In this document: piece by piece, positions 35,339 through 48,420 of the stretch
Position numbering within the stretch: the stretch's first letter is position 1
Layout of the letters: every line of letters starts with the position of its first letter
Assembly (NCBI GenBank): GCA_013288045.1
Contig: JABDCP010000003.1
Location: 1,899 to 65,898, forward strand
Length of the DNA: 64,000 nt
Reading direction: 5' to 3'
From: Candidatus Babelota bacterium
Lineage (GTDB): Bacteria > Babelota > Babeliae > Babelales > Babelaceae
Program-made: the position numbers and the translations under genes
Notes under the pieces: generated by a model
The model's input: only the letters and a program-made list of their open reading frames with translations
Told to the model about the DNA's origin: nothing
The model's database searches: none

Positions 35339-36691
35339 TTAACCACTATGGCCGGTCAGCATTGCATTGGCGGCTATGCCTGCACCAATACCAGCTGCCC
35401 AACAAAGTGCCTGTTTGAGTTCAAAGGACCTTTCTGGATTTGCTTTCTTGACCAGAGTATATGCCCCTAGACCAGCTGCGCTATATACCAGCCATGTAGA
35501 CTTAGGGGTAAAACGATCAGGTTTATTATAGTCTCGACCTACTAAAAGTCCTAAGCAAAGACCTCCAAGAAGATCACCAGTAGACCCTTTAAGAAATTCA
35601 GGAGCTGTATCTTCTTCAGTGGTTTCATGAAAGTGAGGGACCTTAGAATTAGAATGACGGCTTGGAAGACGATGTGCCCGTTTCATACAGGCGAGCTCTT
35701 CTCGCTTGCCCGTATTAATGACCACTACCTGCCAATCTCTTGGATCAAGATGTTTTGGTAGCAGCTTATTTAGTTGTGCATCTTCTTTGGTGAGATCCTT
35801 GATAGGGTACAAGTCCGGGAGCACACGCAGATTGCCTTGTTTTAAACCAAACTTTTTACGGAATTCATCAGGCGTCATGCCATCGATGGTATCATCCTCA
35901 TCATCAGGTATATCAAAAGTTACATTCTTCTTTGTTTGCTTAGGAGCTACTTTTGAGGTAGCGGATACTCTGCGCTCTACCGGAATATGTTCTTGAAACA
36001 GGTCACTTGCTGCAGAGCGTATTTTTTGAAGACTCATGGATTCTTTTTTAGTAGGGGCTCTTTGTAAGTATTTCAGTATAACCTGATCATTTCCATCCTT
36101 TTGGAGGGGATCTATGATCTTCATCGGTTTTCTACAGGTAGGGCATTGATGCTTGTTTCGGGCTGCTTTTAGAGCTTCTTCCAGAGAAAGGTTATGTCCA
36201 CACCCTAACTCAATAATGATATGACCTTTATCTACCTCTTGTTGAGAAGCAGAGCATTTTCGTAGTACAGTATCAGGAGCTGGCTTAGTTGATGGCGTAT
36301 GTCTCATTAAATACGCGCGTAGCTTGTTTTGTTCTTGAACGTTGAGCGGCTTTTGACGATGGTGTACGTATGCATAGCTATTCTTATTGACCCGAGGATC
36401 ATGTACTTTGTAGGTGCTACGGCAGGTTGGACATGCCTTATCCATTGGATTTGCAAGATCCATTGCGTTCACACAATCTAAGCAATAATGATGGTTAACT
36501 TTTTGCTGACAATCGAACTGAATGACGATACTGTCAGGTGTATAAGCGGTCATACAAATGGGACAGCCTGTTCCCTCATCCTCTTCCTCTACTTCATGAG
36601 TATGAGCTCTCGGTCCTGTGGCCCAGAGACTTGGGGTAATACTACCAAAAAGCACTGCTACACCGAGCAGGGTAATAAATAATTTCTTCAT
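35339..36691 (-). CDS. Signal-peptide protein with RING-like zinc finger(s) and C-terminal glycine-zipper TM region
   Basis: CPIC-x14-C-x5-HH-x-C-x2-C-x13-C-x2-C (GCPICMTAYTPDSIVIQFDCQQKVNHHYCLDCVNAMDLANPMDKACPTCRSTY), plus a second degenerate copy (LGCGHNLSLEEALKAARNKHQCPTCRKPM). The C-terminus has GLCLGLLVG and AAGIGAGIAANAML. Confidence 0.7.
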   Translation of the reverse strand: MKKLFITLLGVAVLFGSITPSLWATGPRAHTHEVEEEDEGTGCPICMTAYTPDSIVIQFDCQQKVNHHYCLDCVNAMDLANPMDKACPTCRSTYKVHDPRVNKNSYAYVHHRQKPLNVQEQNKLRAYLMRHTPSTKPAPDTVLRKCSASQQEVDKGHIIIELGCGHNLSLEEALKAARNKHQCPTCRKPMKIIDPLQKDGNDQVILKYLQRAPTKKESMSLQKIRSAASDLFQEHIPVERRVSATSKVAPKQTKKNVTFDIPDDEDDTIDGMTPDEFRKKFGLKQGNLRVLPDLYPIKDLTKEDAQLNKLLPKHLDPRDWQVVVINTGKREELACMKRAHRLPSRHSNSKVPHFHETTEEDTAPEFLKGSTGDLLGGLCLGLLVGRDYNKPDRFTPKSTWLVYSAAGLGAYTLVKKANPERSFELKQALCWAAGIGAGIAANAMLTGHSG

Positions 36692-36780
36692 AGTAAACTT
36701 CCACATTTTAGATTTTCTTATATGTTTATATAAGTAGTATAGCCTAAAATGAATAAAACCTTAAGTGGGTAGAAGAAAGC

Positions 36781-38508: not shown

Positions 38509-41223
38509 TTATTTAAGGTTGTATTCTTGACAGCGTCTATTAACTGATGAGCGGTTAACCCCTAAGAGGGTAGCAATTTTGCTTTGACTTTTGAACTTCT
38601 GCCAAAGGACAGCCATGACATGAGGATCCTTGAGAGCTTTTTTGCCAAGTCGCACTGCATGGGCAATGTCTGGATCTGAAACGTTATAAGCGGGATCAAA
38701 TTTAGTAACCTCAGAAATATTATGCTTACTCGATTTTTGCACAAGGAGTTGATGTACTCGATCTTTAAAAGCACGTAAGCTTAATGGCCGTTCATCATAG
38801 AGTTTTGAGGTATCTTTATCCGTTAATGAGAGCAGGTTTTTATAGGTATCTTCAGTAACAATTTGATCGGCAAATCCTTGCGCTAAAGCGGTGACCTCTG
38901 GTTCTGAAAGCTCATGCATTGGAGGCATAACTAATGAGGTTTGTTCAAGCTCATCATAGAGCTCCTGACAGAATACGCCTTCATGGACAAGCTGCAGAAG
39001 ATTTTTGTTGGTTGAACAGATAATGCGAACGTTACTAAATACTTTATGATCGCTCTTAAATTTATGAAAATAACCAAGTGAAATGAATTCTGCTAAATAA
39101 TTCTGAGTCTCTGTTCCTAAATATTCAACATTCTGGATAAAGAGGGTTCCGATATTATCTAGTTTTTCAAGCAAGGGCTGAATGCCATCTTTTTTTATGA
39201 GCGGATTATGGCCAAAGAGTTTTATAGCAACATCGTCCTGTTTCTCAGGAGAAGTAAGTTTTATAGTGTGGAGTGATTGTCGAAGGCTTATGCTATGGAG
39301 TACTTCAACCGTTGGTATAAGATCTTCCTCAGGCAGATCAAGGAGCGTAGCTTTTTTACCTAATGCTGTTGAAAGCAAGTTAATTTTAAAGGAAAGGAGC
39401 TTTTCGCTATTTCCTGGTATAAGTCTGTTTATTAATTGACCTGATTGTGTCGTTTCTAAATAGAGAACATAGTCCCACATGGAAGGATCTTTGAGCTCAT
39501 CAAAATGAGTTTTAATGATGTCCGATACTTCAGGATAATGAATCAAGACGATCGTTGCCCGCTCTTCAAGGCTTGGGATACCATTTATAATAATTTTTTG
39601 TCCTTTTGCGTCATGTGCAAAGGTAGTTTGTGAGGTCTTAAATTCTTGTACACGACGAGCAAGTGTTCGGATTGCCTGAGTAAGTGGGTGGCCTTCGTTC
39701 GCATTTAAATCTATCCCGACAAGCTCTTGAGCGGCCTCATTTGCTAGCGTGAACTTACGATACTTATAAAAGAGGATGCCGACTTTACGCTCTTTATTGG
39801 AGCGTAGGAAGGATCGGATACTTTCCTTATATTGATTAATTTCTTGGTGCTTGTAATACAGCTCTTCACTAATCACTTTATGTCTCTGATGAAGTGCCTC
39901 TAAATTACTATATTTGAGAATGTTAATAATATTACTTACATAGGTGGTAAACACGAGCATCTCATCTCGATCTTTATTAGTGTACAGTTTGCCCGGTCGT
40001 GCATCACGCTCTACAATGATATAGGCGGATATACCAGATCGCTCAAAGATTGGGAGGAACACGTCGGCATTAATTTCGTTGAGGAATTGAAGAATTTCCT
40101 GATTTTGAGCATCATCTTCATAAAAGGCGGAAAAATGAATGTCGTCTCGTATAAATATTTTTAGTTTATGTAATGCCTGGGTAACCACTTCTTGCTTGTC
40201 GATATACTGCTCGACCTTAGCTGTTGTCTGGGCAATGTCATAGTAGTTGTGATCATCCTGCTCTGAATCGGCTTTACGAATATACAGTCTTACACGACCT
40301 AGAGGGATGCTAAAAGCAGTCTGAAAGAAACTCTGAGTGAGCTGGGCAAGCTCCTTGAGTGCACTTGCATAGCTTAGCTGCTCCAAAATATCTTTAAATT
40401 GTGTGATGAAGTTAAATTTCTGTTTTGATTCAACGGTCTTTCTGATATTAAGGAACCTTAGGCCTAACATTTTTTGAATAATGAGATAAATGGCGGCGCT
40501 ACTTAAGAGACTTGTAAGCGAGAGAACATTAAATCTATGATACCAGGCTGTCGGAATAATCCAGGCGAGTGTTTGACCGGAGTTATTAAGAAGGTCAAAG
40601 CCTATAAAGGGGATAAGGAAACTGGTAAATACACGAATATGTTGCCGCAAAATAGTAGGAATTTCTCGGTTACTATCACGCAGTACCCTATAAAATAGGG
40701 GAATGAGAAGGAAAAAGAGCAAGTAAAAATGAATCGCTTGGATAAGGTCCATCTCAAAATTGACAGTTCTTGGATTGAGCGGAGGAAGTCCATAATTAAT
40801 AAAAGCGTGATAGAGATACGTGCAACTGATGGCAATATTAACTAGTATATGAAAGATAGTCGTGAGGGGATGCAAGGTGATTCGTTTGTGAAGCAAAAAT
40901 TCAAAGAAAAGTGCAATCGTTTGAATTTGCGTTATGTAAATTGACCAACATATACGACAATAGAGGGTGAAGGCAGGGATATCTCCCACAAGGTGATTGA
41001 TATCCCTAATCCAATATTGCAAGATAAAGGTAAGGTCATTTGCAAGTAATCCACCAAGGAAAAACAAAAGACAGACCAGGAGCATCCGGCGGCTTTTTGC
41101 TGAGAAATAGTAGAATATACAGCCAAAGAAAATGATCGCTTTAAAAAGCCACGCACCAATCATAATGCCAAGGGTGACATACTGATTACTCAATAGCGTA
41201 TAAATGGAACTTAGATATTGCAT
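38509..41223 (-). CDS. Polytopic-membrane regulator: multi-TM N-domain, GAF-like, PAS-like, degenerate sigma-54-activator-type AAA+ domain, Fis-type HTH
   Basis: 904 aa, with the first ~270 aa hydrophobic and multi-pass. GTLFIQNVEYL...VRIICSTNKNLLQLVHEGVFCQELYDEL aligns to the NtrC-family GTLFLDEI...VRIIAATN...EGKFREDLYYRL. However, the Walker A position reads LPEEDLIP, Walker B DE is QN, and GAFTGA is absent (KLFGHNPLIKKDG). The C-terminal HTH is IATLLGVNRSSVNRRCQEYNL. Confidence 0.7.
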   Translation of the reverse strand: MQYLSSIYTLLSNQYVTLGIMIGAWLFKAIIFFGCIFYYFSAKSRRMLLVCLLFFLGGLLANDLTFILQYWIRDINHLVGDIPAFTLYCRICWSIYITQIQTIALFFEFLLHKRITLHPLTTIFHILVNIAISCTYLYHAFINYGLPPLNPRTVNFEMDLIQAIHFYLLFFLLIPLFYRVLRDSNREIPTILRQHIRVFTSFLIPFIGFDLLNNSGQTLAWIIPTAWYHRFNVLSLTSLLSSAAIYLIIQKMLGLRFLNIRKTVESKQKFNFITQFKDILEQLSYASALKELAQLTQSFFQTAFSIPLGRVRLYIRKADSEQDDHNYYDIAQTTAKVEQYIDKQEVVTQALHKLKIFIRDDIHFSAFYEDDAQNQEILQFLNEINADVFLPIFERSGISAYIIVERDARPGKLYTNKDRDEMLVFTTYVSNIINILKYSNLEALHQRHKVISEELYYKHQEINQYKESIRSFLRSNKERKVGILFYKYRKFTLANEAAQELVGIDLNANEGHPLTQAIRTLARRVQEFKTSQTTFAHDAKGQKIIINGIPSLEERATIVLIHYPEVSDIIKTHFDELKDPSMWDYVLYLETTQSGQLINRLIPGNSEKLLSFKINLLSTALGKKATLLDLPEEDLIPTVEVLHSISLRQSLHTIKLTSPEKQDDVAIKLFGHNPLIKKDGIQPLLEKLDNIGTLFIQNVEYLGTETQNYLAEFISLGYFHKFKSDHKVFSNVRIICSTNKNLLQLVHEGVFCQELYDELEQTSLVMPPMHELSEPEVTALAQGFADQIVTEDTYKNLLSLTDKDTSKLYDERPLSLRAFKDRVHQLLVQKSSKHNISEVTKFDPAYNVSDPDIAHAVRLGKKALKDPHVMAVLWQKFKSQSKIATLLGVNRSSVNRRCQEYNLK

Positions 41224-41239
41224 AGGTCTAAACTTTTTG

Positions 41240-41267
41240 TTGACTTTTGAGGAAACTGTTATAGAAT
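41240..41267 (+). promoter_or_regulatory. Sigma-70-type promoter, cassette 1
   Basis: TTGACT (41240-41245), 16-nt spacer, TAGAAT (41262-41267). The spacer sequence is almost identical in all three cassettes. The -35 lies 17 nt from the divergent regulator ATG. Confidence 0.6.
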
Positions 41268-41401
41268 CACTTTACAGAAAATCTAATCAAAAAGAGTTTA
41301 ACTCCGTAGCAGCTAATGTCAAATTATGCGCAATGGTTGCTACTTGAAGCTAAGGAATTGTAGTTGGTGGTTTTTTAACATATTTTCAAAAAGGAGTAAC
41401 G

Positions 41402-41524
41402 ATGGCTAAACTAATTGTTAGCGCATTGTTCGCTATACTAATGACTGGTGCAGTAGCTGAAGTTTCTGCACAGACTCGGTCCGAGGCAGCTAAAACGTAT
41501 GCAATCGCCCCGTTTCCGTTCTAA
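41402..41524 (+). CDS. Small secreted peptide precursor 1 (40 aa)
   Basis: AGGAG lies 5 nt before the ATG. Product is MAKLIVSALFAILMTGAVAEVSAQTRSEAAKTYAIAPFPF, with a signal-peptide-like N-half and a VSA|Q site. Changes relative to copy 2 are mostly synonymous. Confidence 0.7.
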   Translation: MAKLIVSALFAILMTGAVAEVSAQTRSEAAKTYAIAPFPF

Positions 41525-41540
41525 AGTATTTTAACTATAA

Positions 41541-41574
41541 AGAAAGAACCCCTCGAATTCGAGGGGTTCTTTCT
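41541..41574 (+). terminator. Terminator, cassette 1
   Basis: agaaagaacccctcg - aatt - cgaggggttctttct: a 15-bp perfect stem with a T-rich tail. Confidence 0.8.
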
Positions 41575-41671
41575 TATAGTTAGGTTTCGCAGCTACTAGT
41601 GCTGGGAATGTGCCCCAAACCTCTGCTTTTAAAGTGTATTGTTCTCCCTAAGAATTTCCTATTCACTTTGG

Positions 41672-41699
41672 TTGACTTTTGAAGAAACCGTTATAGAAT
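41672..41699 (+). promoter_or_regulatory. Sigma-70-type promoter, cassette 2
   Basis: TTGACT (41672-41677), 16-nt spacer, TAGAAT (41694-41699). Confidence 0.6.
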
Positions 41700-41826
41700 A
41701 ATTTATAAGAACCGTACATAAAAATAATATAACTTCGAGCAGCAGCTTATAGTAATTACTTGGCGGCTGTTTGGGTTTTGAGAATTGTGGTGGGTTGGTT
41801 TTATTATTATTCAAACAGGAGTGACG

Positions 41827-41949
41827 ATGACAAAGCTAATTCTTGGTGCTTTGCTTGCTATGTTAATGATTGGTGCAGTAGTTGAAGTTTCTGCACAGAC
41901 TCGGTCAGAGGCCACCAAAACATATGCGGTCTGCCCATTTCCGTTCTAA
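41827..41949 (+). CDS. Small secreted peptide precursor 2 (40 aa)
   Basis: AGGAG lies 5 nt before the ATG. Product is MTKLILGALLAMLMIGAVVEVSAQTRSEATKTYAVCPFPF. Confidence 0.7.
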   Translation: MTKLILGALLAMLMIGAVVEVSAQTRSEATKTYAVCPFPF

Positions 41950-41965
41950 CTTATTCTAACTATAC

Positions 41966-42003
41966 AAGGAAGAACCCCTCGAATCTAGAGGGGTTCTTCC
42001 TTT
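41966..42003 (+). terminator. Terminator, cassette 2
   Basis: aaggaagaacccctc - gaatcta - gaggggttcttcctt: a 15-bp perfect stem. Confidence 0.8.
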
Positions 42004-42090
42004 ATGGCTAAGGTGTCGAGGCTATCATTGAGGGGAAAGCACCCCAAATTGTATGTACGTTAGATCTAAGATTTTCCAGTTCACTTTTGG

Positions 42091-42118
42091 TTGACTTTCG
42101 AGAGAACTGTTATAGAAT
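42091..42118 (+). promoter_or_regulatory. Sigma-70-type promoter, cassette 3
   Basis: TTGACT (42091-42096), 16-nt spacer, TAGAAT (42113-42118). Confidence 0.6.
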
Positions 42119-42233
42119 CCTCTGTAAGAACTGTACATAAAAATAATATGCCTGCGAGTAGCAGCTTATAATAGGCGGCTATTGGAGTTTTGAATTGTAG
42201 TGTGTTGTTTTATAGTATCCAATAGGAGTGTCT

Positions 42234-42359
42234 ATGACAAAGCTGATTTTTAGCGTATTGCTCGCTATATTAATGACAGGTGCAGTTGTTGAAATATCTG
42301 CGCAAGCAAAGCGTTCAACCGTTTCTGCAACTTGCACCGAAGCGCGGTTTCCGTTCTAA
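42234..42359 (+). CDS. Small secreted peptide precursor 3 (41 aa)
   Basis: AGGAG lies 5 nt before the ATG. Product is MTKLIFSVLLAILMTGAVVEISAQAKRSTVSATCTEARFPF. Confidence 0.65.
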   Translation: MTKLIFSVLLAILMTGAVVEISAQAKRSTVSATCTEARFPF

Positions 42360-42368
42360 GTTAAAGTT

Positions 42369-42409
42369 AAAAGAAAGAGCCCCTCGAATTTCGAGGGGCT
42401 CTTTCTTTT
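42369..42409. terminator. Bidirectional terminator shared by cassette 3 and the convergent regulator gene
   Basis: aaaagaaagagcccctc ... gaggggctctttctttt: a 17-bp perfect stem with A/T runs on both sides. It lies 24 nt from the stop of the 42433-45141 gene. Confidence 0.8.
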
Positions 42410-42432
42410 AATAATAGTTTTCAAGTTGGAGG

Positions 42433-45141
42433 CTAGTTGCTTCTCAAATTAAGCTCTCGGCATCTACGGTTCACCGAAGATCTATTCACACCAAGAAGAT
42501 GAGCAATTTTACTTTGATTTTTGAAGGTATACCAGAGCTGAGCCATTATGTGTGGATCGCGGAGTGCTTTTTTCCCTAGTCTTACAGCTTGAGCGATGAC
42601 CGGATCGGTAATACTATTCACCGGATCGATTTTCTCAATGTCTGTGATATTATGTGATCGGGACTTTTCAAGAAGCAGCTCTTGAATTCGCTCTTTAAGC
42701 TCTTGCAAGCTGAGAGGACATTCCTTGATAAGTTGTGAAGTTTCCTTTGGTGTGATACTCAAGAGGTCTTTGAACGTATCAGTAGTGATTAGTTGATCGG
42801 CATATCCTTGTGCAAGCAGGGTGATATCTTCATGAGCAAGGTCAGTTAATGAAGGGAGACTTATGGTAGTGGCTTGCAGCTGCTCAAAGAGCTCTCGAGA
42901 AAAGATTCCTTCATTCACTAATACAGAAAGATCTTTTGACGTTGAACAGATGATGCGGGCAGAGCTCATTATTTTTTGGTCGCTTTTTACTTTATAAAAG
43001 TACCCCATGCGGATGTACTGGGCCAAGGCCTCTTGTGAGGTGAGACTTAACAGTTCCAGATTTTGAATAAAGAGGGTGCCTGATTCATCGAGCTTGGTAA
43101 GCAGACTTTCAGATTGACTACCGCCCAGGAGGTCATTGATCCCAAAGAGCTGTGTGGAGATTTCATCATGCTGCTCATGTTGGGTAAGCTTGAGGGTGTA
43201 CAAGTTCCTCCTTAGACTTATCGAATGGAGTAATGTTACTGCTGAAAGCAGATCTTCCTCAGGCAACGAAAGAAGGACAGCTTTTCTGGTTAAGGCCGCA
43301 GAAAGAAGTCCAATTTTAAAGGACAAGAGTGCCTCAGAGGTGCCAGGAATAAGTTCATTAATAAGCCGCCCCGATTGGGTTGTTTCTAAATAGAGCACAT
43401 AGTCCCAACAGGAGGGATCTTTTAAATACCCAGCATGGGGTTTTAGCAAATCTGAAATTTCTGGATAGTAGAGGAGGAGTATACTTGAGGTCGTATCTGC
43501 ATTTGGAATACCTGAGATCACCAGCTTAGTGCCACGCGTATCCTTACCGTAGGCTATTTGTGCAGTTTTATACTGTTCAACCCGTTGTGCTACGGTCGTG
43601 CATACTTTGGTGAGTGGATGTCCTGAGAGCTTATTCAGATCAAAGCCCACGAGGTCATGAGCAGCTTCATTGGCATATGAAAAAGTGCGATTCTTATAGG
43701 ATATGATGCCGATTTTTCGCTCATGAGAGGTGCGCATGAATGAGCGTATCAGCTCCTTGTACTGATTAATTTCTTGATGCTTATGATAAAGTTCCTCAGT
43801 AAGCTGTTTCTTTTGTACATGCAACGCCTCCATACTACTCTGTTGCAGTGCGGAAATGACGTTACTTATATACGAGGTAAACACGAGCATTTCATCCCGT
43901 TCTTTATTTGTGTAGAGCTTATCAGGTCGTGCATCGCGTTCTACCATAATATAGGCAACTATCCTTGACTGTTCGTAAATTGGTACAAAGAGATCAGCAT
44001 GGATCAAATCAAGGAAAGCGAGAATCTTTCTGTTGAGATCTGAAGCCTCATAGAAATAGGAAAATTCTACGGAATCTCGAATAAATATTTTATCGCGGGC
44101 TAAAGCGGCACGTAATAATTCATCCTCTTTAAGAAATTGGTCAATTTTTAGCGCTGCTCCTATGGCTTCTGGCGAAGTGATCGCGGCATCTTTAATGAAG
44201 AGCCGGGTAAAACTGAGTCGTATACCGAAGGCTGTATGAAAAAAGGTCTGGGTGATATGGCCCAGTTCATTGACTGCTGAGGCATACCTCACCTGCTCCA
44301 AGATGTCCTTAAAATTAGTAAGAAAGTTAAAGGGTACCTTCGAGGTGACATCTGAATGTAGATTAAGCAATCTCAGGCCGAGCATTTTTTTGCTCAAAGT
44401 TATCAGAAGAATGGCACTGCAGAGGGCACCAAGAGTGGCCCAGGAGTATTGACCTAAGGGGAAAGGAATATGTGCCGCACTAAAAATGGTGTACCAGCCG
44501 TCACCAAACAGAAGCAAGGAAAAAGGAAAGAGGTACAGGAGGCATGATTGTGCCTGAACAGCCAAAATTTTAGGAAGTGTTCTGGTGCGTAGTTTTCGTA
44601 TAAGGAATATAAAAAGACCCAAATACAAGACAAATACATAACAATAACTCGCAGAAATTACGTTATGCTCAAGGAGATATTCGCTGCTTGATGTAACTAC
44701 CGGAATTCCATAATAGGCTCCCGCTTCATATAAGAAAAAGCTGGTGAACAGGAGATTGCACAGAAGGCTGAAAATATGAAGGAAGGTGCACTTAATTCTT
44801 TGGGTTAAGAGGTATTCAAAAAAGAGGACTAATGCCTGATGTGCAGTTATGAAAAGACTCAAAGAAATCCGGCAATAGAGGGTAAAAAGGGGGATGTCGC
44901 CCTGTATTTCAAGAATCCTTCGTAAGACGACCGATCCAATATAGGTAGCATCATCAAGGAGCGTTCCGAAAAGAAATATGAGTAACAGAAAAAGAGGTGC
45001 CCTGAGCTGTGGTTTATTATACCAGAACTTGACAATAAACCGACTAATAACGAGCTTGGCAATGCCCACAAGGATGAGAGCGCTACACGTTATATACGGA
45101 TTAACAAGGAAGGAGGTGAGTGCTTCCAATAAGTGGTTCAT
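42433..45141 (-). CDS. Paralogue of the 38509-41223 membrane regulator (same architecture)
   Basis: Colinear with the first regulator along its full length, e.g. GDIPLFTLYCRISLS, FNFLTNFKDILEQVRYASA, AYIMVERDARPDKLYTNKERDEMLVFT and GTLFIQNLELL..ARIICSTSKDL, with HTH IAHLLGVNRSSVNRRCRELNL. I chose ATG 45141 (MNHLLEAL) because it aligns with the paralogue's N-terminus; the tracked ORF starts at TTG 45213. Confidence 0.7.
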   Translation of the reverse strand: MNHLLEALTSFLVNPYITCSALILVGIAKLVISRFIVKFWYNKPQLRAPLFLLLIFLFGTLLDDATYIGSVVLRRILEIQGDIPLFTLYCRISLSLFITAHQALVLFFEYLLTQRIKCTFLHIFSLLCNLLFTSFFLYEAGAYYGIPVVTSSSEYLLEHNVISASYCYVFVLYLGLFIFLIRKLRTRTLPKILAVQAQSCLLYLFPFSLLLFGDGWYTIFSAAHIPFPLGQYSWATLGALCSAILLITLSKKMLGLRLLNLHSDVTSKVPFNFLTNFKDILEQVRYASAVNELGHITQTFFHTAFGIRLSFTRLFIKDAAITSPEAIGAALKIDQFLKEDELLRAALARDKIFIRDSVEFSYFYEASDLNRKILAFLDLIHADLFVPIYEQSRIVAYIMVERDARPDKLYTNKERDEMLVFTSYISNVISALQQSSMEALHVQKKQLTEELYHKHQEINQYKELIRSFMRTSHERKIGIISYKNRTFSYANEAAHDLVGFDLNKLSGHPLTKVCTTVAQRVEQYKTAQIAYGKDTRGTKLVISGIPNADTTSSILLLYYPEISDLLKPHAGYLKDPSCWDYVLYLETTQSGRLINELIPGTSEALLSFKIGLLSAALTRKAVLLSLPEEDLLSAVTLLHSISLRRNLYTLKLTQHEQHDEISTQLFGINDLLGGSQSESLLTKLDESGTLFIQNLELLSLTSQEALAQYIRMGYFYKVKSDQKIMSSARIICSTSKDLSVLVNEGIFSRELFEQLQATTISLPSLTDLAHEDITLLAQGYADQLITTDTFKDLLSITPKETSQLIKECPLSLQELKERIQELLLEKSRSHNITDIEKIDPVNSITDPVIAQAVRLGKKALRDPHIMAQLWYTFKNQSKIAHLLGVNRSSVNRRCRELNLRSN

Positions 45142-45303
45142 TGACAATGTCTCTAGTCCCTCACAGGAGGGTATATATAAAATGAGTACTGCTTGTATTA
45201 TTAATTTAAACAAATTGGTCTATTGGTCAAATGGTTGGGCGTCTCCTTTGTTGTCTAATGGGCAGTAAAAAGGTAAAGTAGCACATAGGTAGCAAGGAGT
45301 GGC

Positions 45304-46221: not shown

Positions 46222-46569
46222 ATGAAACTATACGTAGGAAACCTTTCCCGCTCTACAACGGATGATACGGTTCGACAAGCATTTGAACAATTTGGCGAAG
46301 TATCGTCAGTTCGAATTCTCTTCGATCGTGAAACCCGCCAATCTCGTGGTTTCGGCTTTGTCGAAATGCCACAAGATGAGCAAGCGAAAGAAGCTATGGA
46401 TAAGCTTAATGAAACTGAAATTGAAGGTCGTCGCATTCGTGTAAACGAAGCGCGCGAACCAGAACGCACCGGCGGAAGCAGTGGTGGTGGCCGTTCAGGT
46501 GGTGGTTTCCGCGGTGATCGCGGCGGTGACCGTGGTCCACGTGATGGCGGTTTTAGAAATCGTTTCTAA
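46222..46569 (+). CDS. RRM-type RNA-binding protein with Gly/Arg-rich tail
   Basis: RNP-2 LYVGNL, RNP-1 RGFGFVEM and a C-terminal GGSSGGGRSGGGFRGDRGGDRGPRDGGFRNRF. Confidence 0.9.
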   Translation: MKLYVGNLSRSTTDDTVRQAFEQFGEVSSVRILFDRETRQSRGFGFVEMPQDEQAKEAMDKLNETEIEGRRIRVNEAREPERTGGSSGGGRSGGGFRGDRGGDRGPRDGGFRNRF

Positions 46570-46681: not shown

Positions 46682-47416
46682 TTATTGATTTGTAGGTATG
46701 GTCGTGCTTAACAAGGCGCAGCTACAATATTTGTTAAATATATAGGCTTTAAGGGCATTACTCATTCCTTGAGGAAAAGGAAATAGAAATTCAAAGGATG
46801 GATTTGGATTATTACAATCATTGGAGGTGGTGATAAAAACATGAAAAACTTGATTTTTTGGTAAAGGAAAGGCGGAAAAGGTACGTTCAAAAGGTGATTC
46901 ATGTGCAGTAACTGTAATTGGAGGGTGAATTAGATTGAGTTCAGTGTCCTCTACCTGTACTTCAAAAGAAACTTCCCCTGAGTCTTGGCCGCCCGGGTCA
47001 GTAACACTGAGCGTGAAGCATCCCGGACCATCTCCTAGAGGCAAAGAGTTAATCGACAGGCTTACTGATTTGGTTTGAGATGTTGAAGGTAGAATGCTAT
47101 AGGTTATTTGGTTATTTAAAGTGTCCGTTACGATCAAATCATATTTAGTAAATTCTCCAAATACTGGTACCGTGAATGTTGCAGTTGGAGCTACTATAGG
47201 GGAGCTACTAAAGGGGAGGCCTGAATTAACTATGGTATAGGTATAATTACCTGCAGAACTAGGTGTACCACCAGCGGCGATTGCTGAGATGTTTGTAGTT
47301 GATGATACACATCCGCTAGGATTGATTGTTATATTCGAGATAAATAATGGTTGTGACCCTGTCTGGGCTGCGAGGCTCACAGACCAAGCGAGTAACGTGA
47401 GTAAGAATTTCTTCAT
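46682..47416 (-). CDS. Secreted protein, FISNI...FPFPQGM family, member 3
   Basis: N-terminus MKKFLLTLLAWSVSLAAQTGSQPLFISNITI and C-terminus LFPFPQGMSNALKAYIFNKYCSCAL. Confidence 0.75.
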   Translation of the reverse strand: MKKFLLTLLAWSVSLAAQTGSQPLFISNITINPSGCVSSTTNISAIAAGGTPSSAGNYTYTIVNSGLPFSSSPIVAPTATFTVPVFGEFTKYDLIVTDTLNNQITYSILPSTSQTKSVSLSINSLPLGDGPGCFTLSVTDPGGQDSGEVSFEVQVEDTELNLIHPPITVTAHESPFERTFSAFPLPKNQVFHVFITTSNDCNNPNPSFEFLFPFPQGMSNALKAYIFNKYCSCALLSTTIPTNQ

Positions 47417-47727
47417 AATGCTTCTCTTTAGTAAAAATGTAATAGTTAGGTTCTGATATCTCAAATCTTGCTGATCACAAACTACCATAGTCCCCTTAAT
47501 GAAAACAATAATTTTACGCTCATGAAACTGAATACATGAAACTATAGCCGGGAACCCGGGAAACTACCAATGCTTGAGCCAGTGCGTTCAAAGCGATGGC
47601 GGTTTTAGAAATCGTTTCTAAGTTTTGAAACAAACAAAAGGGTGGGCCTTAAAACCCACTCTTTTGTTTGTTGTCTATATGTTGAGAGGTGCAGTACAAT
47701 ACCCGAGATGTTCCTCAGAGCTCTTAG

Positions 47728-48420
47728 TTAGGATTGGCTGGCAGGTATGGTGGTGCTAATTAACGCACAGCTGCAATATTTAGTAAAGATATACGTCTTC
47801 AGGGCATTACCCATTCCTTGAGGAAAAAAGGGAAAGGTAATGGAGATAGTAGAGAGGCCGTTATCATTACAATCATTGTTCAGAAAGAAAAGAGCAGTAA
47901 GTGGTATTGAACTTTTGAAAGCAGAGAACGTCTTTGTAAAAGGGGCTTTGCTCAGTGTCTGTACTACGGGTGATCCATCTGAGACAGAAAATTGAACCGA
48001 AGTTGTTGAAGCCGATGGATCAATAACCGTTAAGGTGATGCATCCTGGGCTAGTTCCTAGAGGTAATGAACCGACCGATACGCTGATAGACTGGGCACTA
48101 AATGGTTCAAATAAAACGGGATAGATTACCTGGTTGGTACTGCTATCTGTTATTACTAGATCAAAGTTTCCCGATTCGACATCACTAAATTGTACCGTTG
48201 TTCCAACTTCGGTTATGCCATTTAACTGATAGGTATATGAACCATCTGTTGCAGGCTGACCACCTGAGGCAGTCACTGATATATTTGCGGTGTCTGTACA
48301 TCCTGGAAGTTGAGGTGGAGGATAATTAAAAGTTATGTTGGAGATAAACAATGGTTGTGGCCCTGTCTGCGCTGCAAGGCTTACAGACCAGGCGAGTAAC
48401 GTGAGTAAGAATTTCTTCAT
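47728..48420 (-). CDS. Secreted protein, FISNI...FPQGMGNALK family, member 4
   Basis: N-terminus MKKFLLTLLAWSVSLAAQTGPQPLFISNITF and C-terminus TFPFFPQGMGNALKTYIFTKYCSCAL. Confidence 0.75.
   Translation of the reverse strand: MKKFLLTLLAWSVSLAAQTGPQPLFISNITFNYPPPQLPGCTDTANISVTASGGQPATDGSYTYQLNGITEVGTTVQFSDVESGNFDLVITDSSTNQVIYPVLFEPFSAQSISVSVGSLPLGTSPGCITLTVIDPSASTTSVQFSVSDGSPVVQTLSKAPFTKTFSAFKSSIPLTALFFLNNDCNDNGLSTISITFPFFPQGMGNALKTYIFTKYCSCALISTTIPASQS

Follow-up and report, generated by a model that had tools for sequence, protein, structure and literature searches.

How does a protein that carries the ATPase module of a sigma-54 activator work when the catalytic signatures of that module are gone, and what are the small peptide genes beside it for? 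The question is raised by a 64,000-nucleotide (nt) stretch of DNA from Candidatus Babelota bacterium (assembly GCA_013288045.1, contig JABDCP010000003.1), hereafter the window, in which two minus-strand genes, regA (38509-41223; 904 amino acids (aa), ATG start) and regB (42433-45141; 902 aa), flank three tandem peptide cassettes on the plus strand. A first-pass annotation of the sequence had described them as two paralogous polytopic regulators of about 900 aa, and they are indeed full-length paralogs with 49% identity from end to end. The length of regB is counted from the ATG at 45141, which aligns with the N-terminus of regA; an alternative TTG start at 45213 would extend the protein to 926 aa. 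Based on the open reading frames (ORFs), Pfam and NCBIfam searches, AlphaFold models and Foldseek matches (NtrX, DmpR, PspF), both proteins share one predicted architecture, which consists of a seven-helix transmembrane (TM) domain, a GAF-like segment, a coiled coil, a PAS-like segment, a pseudo-AAA+ module, and a Fis-type helix-turn-helix (HTH). They are best read as lineage-specific paralogs within a family of membrane-embedded one-component regulators that occurs across Dependentiae. Every catalytic motif of the AAA+ module has been replaced in this family, and most copies of the regulator are paired with a divergent micropeptide gene.

The AAA+ module, which is of the type found in bacterial enhancer-binding proteins (bEBPs), occupies residues 601-833 of regA (38725-39423, minus strand). 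The Pfam model Sigma54_activat matched regA and regB above its gathering threshold, covering only profile positions 66/93-167, and it was above threshold in 47 of 47 family members, again with only the C-terminal two-thirds of the model matched. The best partial matches in NCBIfam were TyrR, PspF, DhaR, and NtrX. In a Foldseek search with the full model, NtrX was the best fold match, and DmpR, PspF (TM-score ~0.67), NtrC1, FleQ, and LuxO were also found. A family profile built from 61 sequences detected NtrC1 and NtrC4 among the PDB sequences at E=1e-19, with NtrC4 (3dzd) aligned across the whole module. All of these comparisons place the C-terminal half in the sigma-54-interaction family.

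The profile alignment with NtrC4 indicates what became of each motif. At Walker A, NtrC4 has VLITGESGTGKEIVA and the family has TLLxLPEEDLxPTV, so that GESGTGKE is replaced by LPEEDLxP; the corresponding position in regA and regB reads LPEEDL(I/L)(P/S). This region comprises residues 626-640 of regA (TLLDLPEEDLIPTVE; 39304-39348, minus strand) and lies at 43240-43284 (minus strand) in regB. In the AlphaFold model of regA, the loop connecting strand 1 and helix 1 is 3 residues long; a P-loop requires about 8. At Walker B, GTLFLDEVGEL of NtrC4 corresponds to GTLFIQNIEYL in the family, and the DE pair is replaced by QN in regA (residues 692-700, GTLFIQNVE; 39124-39150, minus strand; 43054-43080, minus strand, in regB). 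The GAFTGA region, ELFGHEKGAFTGA in NtrC4, is reduced to KLFGxNP..L by deletion of the loop. Gaps and mismatches stand where NtrC1 and NtrC4 have EKGAFTGA, and the family consensus contains no GAFTGA-like sequence. In the arginine-finger region, FREDLYYRL of NtrC4 is aligned with FSKxLxNEL in the family, FCQELYDEL in regA, and FSRELFEQL in regB; both arginines are lost in regA (residues 749-760, GVFCQELYDELE; 38944-38979, minus strand). The sensor II region changes from GNVRELKN to LSLQELKE, with Q, H, and R at the sensor II position in 23, 14, and 9 of the 61 sequences, respectively.

Column counts over the same 61 sequences gave no Walker A lysine (0/61), no Gly-Lys pair at the site (0/61), and no DE pair at Walker B (0/61). 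The first Walker B position is Q in 37 sequences, E in 16, and K in 7, and the second is N in 59. The loss of Walker A, Walker B, GAFTGA, and the arginine fingers, which the first-pass annotation had read from the two window proteins, was borne out, as the 61-sequence alignment recovers none of them. Two outcomes had been named beforehand as failures of that annotation, namely that the family placement would not hold or that Walker motifs would be recovered, and neither occurred. Conservation extends to the replacements: D634 and H643 do not vary, N698 is present in 59/61 sequences, and both PEEDL and QN are kept among sequences with only ~45-50% identity. Because this pattern points to purifying selection, the AAA+ domain has been retained and repurposed and is not decaying; pseudogenisation of the domain is ruled out by the conservation of the replacement motifs.

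The deletion of the GAFTGA loop in all 61 sequences examined, together with the adjacent promoters, suggests that the family acts independently of sigma-54. The promoters of the cassettes are of the sigma-70 type (TTGACT-16-TAGAAT), and sites resembling the sigma-54 consensus TGGCAC-N5-TTGCW with up to two mismatches occur in the window at the level of chance (32 found, 32 expected), none of them at the promoter position of the cassettes. A regular expression for the RpoN box had no match in 1.16 Mb of targeted loci, a result that is uninformative on genome content. Compared with the bEBPs that activate sigma-54, the family has AAA+ homology of the PF00158 type; it lacks Walker A, Walker B, GAFTGA, the arginine fingers and sensor II Arg, and the -24/-12 promoters. 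Since five of the seven features that define a bEBP fail, it would be a mistake to class the family with the sigma-54 activators on the strength of its database name. The names 'sigma 54-interacting transcriptional regulator' and 'regulator of aromatic amino acid metabolism' are probably misleading.

By function, the closest known proteins are the sigma-54-independent bEBPs. TyrR, NtrX, VpsR, and NtrC of Rhodobacter capsulatus combine an AAA+ domain of the PF00158 type without a functional GAFTGA motif with a Fis-type HTH and work at promoters of the sigma-70 type; VpsR is said to lack the ATPase residues as well. The family likewise has a predicted HTH and no GAFTGA motif. In contrast to its seven-helix membrane domain, the N-termini of these soluble proteins are ACT/PAS or receiver domains, and TyrR and NtrX bind ATP, whereas the P-loop is gone in the family (a 3-residue loop and an acidic PEEDL). 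The family would thus unite two known kinds of protein, a bEBP derivative that acts without sigma-54 and a one-component regulator embedded in the membrane.

The membrane domain comprises residues 1-262 of regA (40438-41223, minus strand). Seven TM helices were predicted within residues 14-254 by hydropathy analysis and by each of two AlphaFold models, in line with the multi-pass N-terminal domain that had been annotated from the sequence. The predicted local distance difference test (pLDDT) score was 82 for the full-length model and 90.7 for the TM-only model, which had a predicted TM-score (pTM) of 0.87. In 106 members of the family, Lys and Arg residues number ~10.4 in the four segments predicted to be cytoplasmic and ~2.7 in the four predicted periplasmic segments. 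This positive-inside bias predicts a topology in which the N-terminus is outside and everything past residue 255 is cytoplasmic. The extracytoplasmic loops are very short in the models. The domain is the most divergent part of the family, with a mean column identity of 38% compared with 61% in the sensor region, and it matched no Pfam family. When the TM-domain model was submitted to Foldseek, the top 50 PDB matches were all class A G-protein-coupled receptors (GPCRs), with TM-scores of 0.35-0.61, E-values of 4e-3 to 4e-2, and sequence identities of 8-17%. The best E-value was 3.6e-3, and none reached 1e-3. Seven TM helices and an N-out/C-in topology are common to both groups, and many of the matched structures are peptide or chemokine receptors. 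Because the E-values are weak, we treat the similarity as a generic resemblance between seven-helix proteins.

The segments that follow are less easily named. Residues 272-438 (39910-40410, minus strand) form a GAF-like alpha/beta segment, residues 441-475 (39799-39903, minus strand) a long helix that resembles a coiled-coil linker and contains a conserved KHQEINQYKESIRSF, and residues 482-562 (39538-39780, minus strand) a PAS-like segment with a strand-strand-helices-three-strands order. The GAF-like and PAS-like labels of the first-pass annotation are supported only by the order of predicted secondary-structure elements; in Pfam, the matches were below threshold (PAS_8 weakly in 5/47 members, GAF_2 in 1/47 at E=0.09), and a profile of residues 263-622 found no relative among the PDB sequences. 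The AlphaFold model has a helical stretch between the PAS-like unit and the AAA+ alpha/beta domain, which is modelled together with its lid. The most conserved motif of the family, LKDPSxWDYxLYLETTxSGxLINxLIPG (residues 577-604 of regA; 39412-39495, minus strand), precedes and overlaps the start of the AAA+ domain. Its invariant columns are D584, L587-T592, G595, and P603, and we found no counterpart of it in canonical bEBPs.

The C-terminal residues 851-904 of regA (LLGVNRSSVNRRC; 38512-38673, minus strand) were assigned to a Fis-type HTH, as annotated earlier. The position, the motif, and the register agree with this assignment. AlphaFold predicts a small helical bundle at residues 851-900, the alignments of TyrR and NifA extend to the C-terminus, and Fis aligns in register (GINRGTLRKKLKKY vs GVNRSSVNRRCQEY) including a G(I/V)NR motif. 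The scores, however, are weak: E is only 0.44 for Fis and 0.12 for Pfam HTH_8 (PF02954) in regB, and HTH_8 matched 12/47 members at E<=1.

The architecture is widespread in the sampled Dependentiae. More than 373 relatives, with few exceptions ~900 aa long, came from a word-indexed search; those that carry a name are called 'sigma 54-interacting transcriptional regulator' and belong to Dependentiae, Babeliales, or Babela. When residues 1-622 were compared by phmmer with the representatives of 1.84 billion clusters (50% identity clusters), 378 matches were obtained, and because almost all of these are also ~900 aa long, the sensor half occurs in essentially one architecture. Among the GTDB species genomes, 165 relatives were confirmed, and the informative titles were Dependentiae, Babeliales, or TM6. 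Every taxonomically informative name among the relatives listed points to Dependentiae (TM6), and the window itself is assigned to Candidatus Dependentiae by its composition and by the names of its homologs. A few generic labels such as 'uncultured Pseudomonadota' look like binning defaults. Babela massiliensis, which is reported to have only 5 predicted transcription regulators (PMC4378268), contains a family member, P0069. We found no literature on the regulator family and none of relevance on sigma-54, rpoN, or sigma factors in Dependentiae, TM6, or Babela; literature on membrane-bound bEBPs in general was uninformative.

The gene order around the regulators is also recurrent. Across the phylum, nth and then a micropeptide gene, both on the opposite strand, precede one to three regulators, which are followed by a tyrosine recombinase of the xerC/D-like kind and by PBP2. 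In the two loci that we inspected, the recombinase (RHSFATHLL…LGH…Y) lies between the last regulator and PBP2 (L045, 8497-9423; L054, 8604-9536), and in most other loci a gap of ~1 kb or more separates the regulator from PBP2. The recombinase is missing at that position in the window clade, where PBP2 starts 9 nt past the regA stop codon. In a relative with 81% identity (L002, 6355-15774), three tandem regulators lie between nth and PBP2, accompanied by two intact micropeptide genes and one that is apparently truncated (MAKLIIGIFLGILVMLDNVKYLRVIQRDLS). The three-regulator arrangement indicates that the copy number of the module changes quickly within the window clade.

In 61 of the 73 loci with enough upstream sequence, a small ORF, the micropeptide gene, is present on the opposite strand, mostly starting 60-100 nt upstream of the regulator start. 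Counted per regulator copy, a divergent micropeptide gene was detected in 78/109. The encoded peptide starts with polar or basic residues, continues into a single hydrophobic helix, and ends in a tail of the form [DE]-x-P-P-x(1-3). Elsewhere in the loci, the filter that recognized these genes gave 0.014 matches per 700 nt per strand. The pairing had not been noted before, and it gives independent support to the proposal, made from the window, of a sensor/regulator and cognate peptide module. The bracketing by two regulators that was part of this proposal is present locally, but the unit that recurs elsewhere comprises a single regulator and a single, divergently transcribed peptide gene. The micropeptides matched no family in Pfam or NCBIfam. 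A type I toxin reading of them is unlikely given the strict one-to-one pairing with the regulator at a conserved position.

In loci with two copies, each regulator has its own peptide. The [DE]-x-PP tail accompanies the first or single copy, and an R-(F/W/Y)-PP tail accompanies the second. In a rough neighbour-joining tree, two old regulator clades correspond to the two peptide classes. Because the classes track the clades, regulator and peptide gene have duplicated and diverged together. When the 25 columns of the TM domain with the clearest separation of the classes were located, 17 were by our own count in predicted periplasmic segments, and these segments make up ~21% of the domain.

Most peptides of the family are 25-40 aa long and consist of a single helix followed by 4-7 residues, with no signal-peptidase site. 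The peptides of the window clade are a derived version, which has been amplified to three cassettes with two mature sequence types. They have a predicted cleavable signal peptide with a canonical AxA site (…VSA then Q), which would release a mature peptide of 17-18 aa ending in FPF. In each cassette, the TTGACT-16-TAGAAT promoter is separated by a leader of ~130 nt from an ORF of 40-41 codons, which has AGGAG as its Shine-Dalgarno sequence and is followed by a G+C-rich hairpin and a T run. Cassette 1 (41240-41575, plus strand) has its promoter at 41240-41267, a 5' leader of ~130 nt, and an ORF at 41402-41524 that encodes MAKLIVSALFAILMTGAVAEVSA and then QTRSEAAKTYAIAPFPF. Its G+C-rich inverted repeat and T run at 41540-41575 were read by eye and were not terminator-like in the scan. 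Cassette 2 (41672-42003, plus strand) has the same promoter at 41672-41699 and an ORF at 41827-41949 with the mature part QTRSEATKTYAVCPFPF. A G+C-rich inverted repeat at 41967-42003 was read by eye at its end, where the scan gave only a short minus-strand hairpin (41991-41975). Cassette 3 (42091-42411, plus strand) has the same promoter again at 42091-42118 and an ORF at 42234-42359 with the mature part QAKRSTVSATCTEARFPF. The hairpin at 42367-42411, which has a terminator-like score on both strands, is located between cassette 3 and the regB stop codon and is common to both genes, in agreement with the earlier annotation that regB converges on cassette 3 over a shared terminator. An arrest or leader peptide reading was rejected for the window, where every cassette is closed by a G+C-rich hairpin and T run with no further gene behind it on that strand; it may hold for loci where nth follows with no detected terminator.

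The three cassette leaders (41274-41401, 41706-41826, and 42125-42233, plus strand; ~110-130 nt) have conserved blocks in common. RNAalifold paired a CUCC-like stretch with the AGGAG Shine-Dalgarno sequence and predicted an internal AGCAGC/GGCGGCU hairpin, with negligible covariation from three sequences. When searched against Rfam, the cassettes had no match at the gathering score and gave only look-alikes of hairpins and terminators. No adjacent peptide gene was found in the regB clade. A small ORF with a GGAGGG Shine-Dalgarno sequence (MSTACIINLNKLVYWSNGWASPLLSNGQ; 45182-45268, plus strand) lies between regB and nth at the usual micropeptide position. It encodes neither a hydrophobic helix nor a PP tail, and its frame is shifted in a relative with 98% identity (L003), which lies on a 1.6 Mb contig of a metagenome-assembled genome. 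On account of this frameshift we rejected it as the peptide gene of regB, and it is probably what remains of a decayed gene.

The regulator and peptide promoters lie close together. The regA start codon (41223) is 16 nt from the -35 element of cassette 1 (41240), so the divergent, adjoining layout annotated earlier holds with a spacing one nucleotide shorter than the 17 nt given then. In distant loci, the -35 element of the peptide promoter again adjoins the regulator start codon, at 8 nt in L045 and 4 nt in L036. A terminator-like hairpin on both strands separates the upstream regulator from the peptide gene in L036, a layout like that of the window. By eye, the only recurrent elements in 63 divergent intergenic regions were a -10-like element of the AGTATA(A/C) type and the Shine-Dalgarno sequence of the peptide. 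These spacers of ~80 nt (loci L013-L078) contain the element AGTATAAT / ATTATACT, which is nearly palindromic and can be read as a -10 hexamer in either direction. The promoter of the regulator may therefore overlap that of the peptide and compete with it. In the same loci, no obvious Shine-Dalgarno sequence precedes the regulators, and (G/A)ATCAATA or GCAATA precedes the ATG.

The explanation that we favour for all of these features, with a confidence only slightly above even, is a sigma-54-independent one-component transmembrane regulator with a pseudo-AAA+ scaffold and a cognate micropeptide. The seven-helix domain (N-out, C-in) would be the sensor, and its signal would reach the AAA+ domain by way of the GAF-like segment, then the long helix, and finally the PAS-like segment. 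Because nucleotide binding, hydrolysis, and the sigma-54 contact loop are lost, we propose that this domain serves only as a scaffold for oligomerisation and transmission. It may set the oligomeric state or the geometry of the Fis-type HTH on the adjacent divergent promoter region, and since the protein is tethered to the membrane, a target beside its own gene would be the easiest to reach. The regulator would control the sigma-70-type micropeptide promoter and probably its own operon, which runs into PBP2 in the window. The micropeptide, with its tail at the periplasmic face, would most likely be the cognate ligand or membrane partner of the seven-helix domain, and the outcome would be an autoregulatory peptide-receptor loop.

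Several points weigh against this explanation. In 31 of the 109 regulator copies, regB included, no adjacent peptide gene was detected, and some of these may be filter misses. The R-type peptides have an Arg directly after the helix, which makes their membrane orientation ambiguous. The periplasmic excess of class-separating columns is only suggestive, as it is confounded by phylogeny and by the general variability of loops. Inspection of the 63 divergent intergenic regions by eye revealed no conserved operator, and the HTH is assigned on weak scores. What the data show is the architecture, the conserved loss of the motifs, the gene pairing with its duplication as a unit, and promoters that resemble those of sigma-70; the contact between peptide and receptor, the binding of DNA at the divergent promoter, independence from sigma-54, and a scaffold role for the AAA+ domain are inferred.

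A different role for the micropeptide is possible, although we consider it unlikely: the sensor may read the state of the membrane or envelope, or a host small molecule or lipid, and the micropeptide may be a regulated output, such as an envelope or secreted effector, and not the ligand. The gene pairing would be equally expected for a regulator and its target. The very short extracytoplasmic loops resemble those of intramembrane-sensing proteins, regB and ~30% of the copies have no adjacent peptide gene, and the conserved position of the regulator upstream of the xerC/D-like recombinase and PBP2 hints at an envelope or cell-cycle output. A mere output, however, would not need class-specific positions that concentrate on the predicted periplasmic face. 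The co-divergence of peptide class and regulator clade, the duplication of the pair as a unit, and the rapid evolution of the TM domain, the fastest in the protein, also argue against a mere output.

Alternatively, the micropeptide may be a membrane modulator similar to MgrB of the MgrB/PhoQ pair, induced by the regulator and binding its TM domain laterally as a feedback brake and not as a diffusible signal. The length of most peptides, with a single helix, few residues beyond it, and no signal-peptidase site, is more in keeping with a partner that stays in the membrane than with a pheromone that is secreted, and the divergent genes with their overlapping promoters are in keeping with such a brake. 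In contrast, the canonical AxA sites of the window-clade peptides predict release as soluble 17-18-mers, and a conserved acidic residue with a short tail resembles the precursors of small hydrophobic pheromones. We regard this brake as distinctly improbable. A residual sigma-54 role, as a non-catalytic subunit or anti-activator that co-assembles with an active bEBP, is very improbable: the AAA+ fold persists together with a large part of the subunit core (TM-score ~0.67 to PspF) and the database label reads 'sigma 54-interacting', but the GAFTGA loop is deleted in 61/61 members examined, the adjacent promoters are of the sigma-70 type with no -24/-12 signal, no second, intact bEBP was seen in any of the 78 loci, and Dependentiae genomes are reduced and have few regulators (PMC4378268).

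The favoured peptide-sensing regulator shares features with several known systems. Similar to ToxR, CadC, and TcpP, it would combine a membrane span and a cytoplasmic DNA-binding domain in one polypeptide, with a likely target that adjoins its own gene. Those proteins have an N-terminal winged helix, one TM helix, and a periplasmic sensor domain, whereas the family is predicted to have an N-terminal seven-helix sensor, large cytoplasmic domains, a C-terminal HTH, and no periplasmic domain. Pfam found no OmpR-type winged-helix or periplasmic sensor domains in regA, regB, or the family members. The AgrC/AgrD and ComD/ComC systems (HPK10) resemble the family in their polytopic sensor with very short outer loops, in the linked gene for a precursor peptide, and in the joint diversification of receptor and peptide into specificity classes. 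Unlike in these systems, the locus has no histidine kinase or response regulator, and the receptor of the family would itself be the transcription factor; no homology was detected, and Pfam gave no HisKA or HATPase match in regA, regB, or the family members. A processing or export gene of the AgrB/ComAB type was not noted among the recurrent neighbours nth, xerC/D-like recombinase, and PBP2, the other flanking genes not having been systematically annotated. In the Rgg/SHP (RRNPP) systems, a gene for a small hydrophobic peptide is also divergent from the regulator over a short promoter region, and the peptides have a conserved acidic residue before the C-terminal tail, as in the family. The RRNPP receptors, however, are cytosolic TPR proteins that bind the re-imported peptide and are unrelated in sequence, whereas the receptor of the family would be in the membrane.

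For the biology of AAA+ proteins and bEBPs, the family would offer a natural, phylum-wide core that lacks the nucleotide motifs and is under strong purifying selection, and hence a system for studying what the fold does without ATP, in oligomerisation or signal transmission. If the proposed role of the micropeptide is true, a seven-helix sensor joined directly to DNA binding and linked to a micropeptide would reduce peptide signalling to two genes. Dependentiae are uncultured or hard-to-culture protist parasites with very few transcription factors. The wide occurrence of the family, usually at the same locus with nth, the recombinase, and PBP2, the frequent presence of two or three copies, and the scarcity of other regulators suggest that it is likely central to Dependentiae, and we consider it a strong candidate for the control of their life cycle. 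A more far-reaching version is tentative and, in our view, doubtful. It holds that a GPCR-like peptide receptor, fused to a transcription factor with a nucleotide-free bEBP scaffold and accompanied by a divergent Pro-Pro micropeptide, forms an autocrine or quorum circuit with only one protein besides the peptide. In the obligate intracellular Dependentiae, such a circuit would be the chief signalling device conserved throughout the phylum; it would diversify by duplication of the pair and, given the conserved recombinase and PBP2 downstream, might time envelope growth or the developmental cycle.

Other genes near the regulators were observed in the window. A Gly/Arg-rich RNA-binding protein of the RRM type (46222-46569, plus strand) adjoins nth and is syntenic in several relatives (L002, L003, L006, L007, and L010). 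Two tandem paralogous secreted proteins (46682-47488 and 47728-48420, minus strand) have in common the signal peptide MKKFLLTLLAWSVSLAAQTG and the C-terminal motif ALKxYIFxKYCSCALxSTTIP. On the 3' side of PBP2, a 455-aa protein (35339-36706, minus strand) has two Cys-rich RING-like segments (a faint match to Pfam zf-RING_2), a signal-like N-terminal helix, and a hydrophobic C-terminal region. This protein looks like a eukaryote-type E3-ligase effector and is syntenic in the close relatives L002, L003, and L011.

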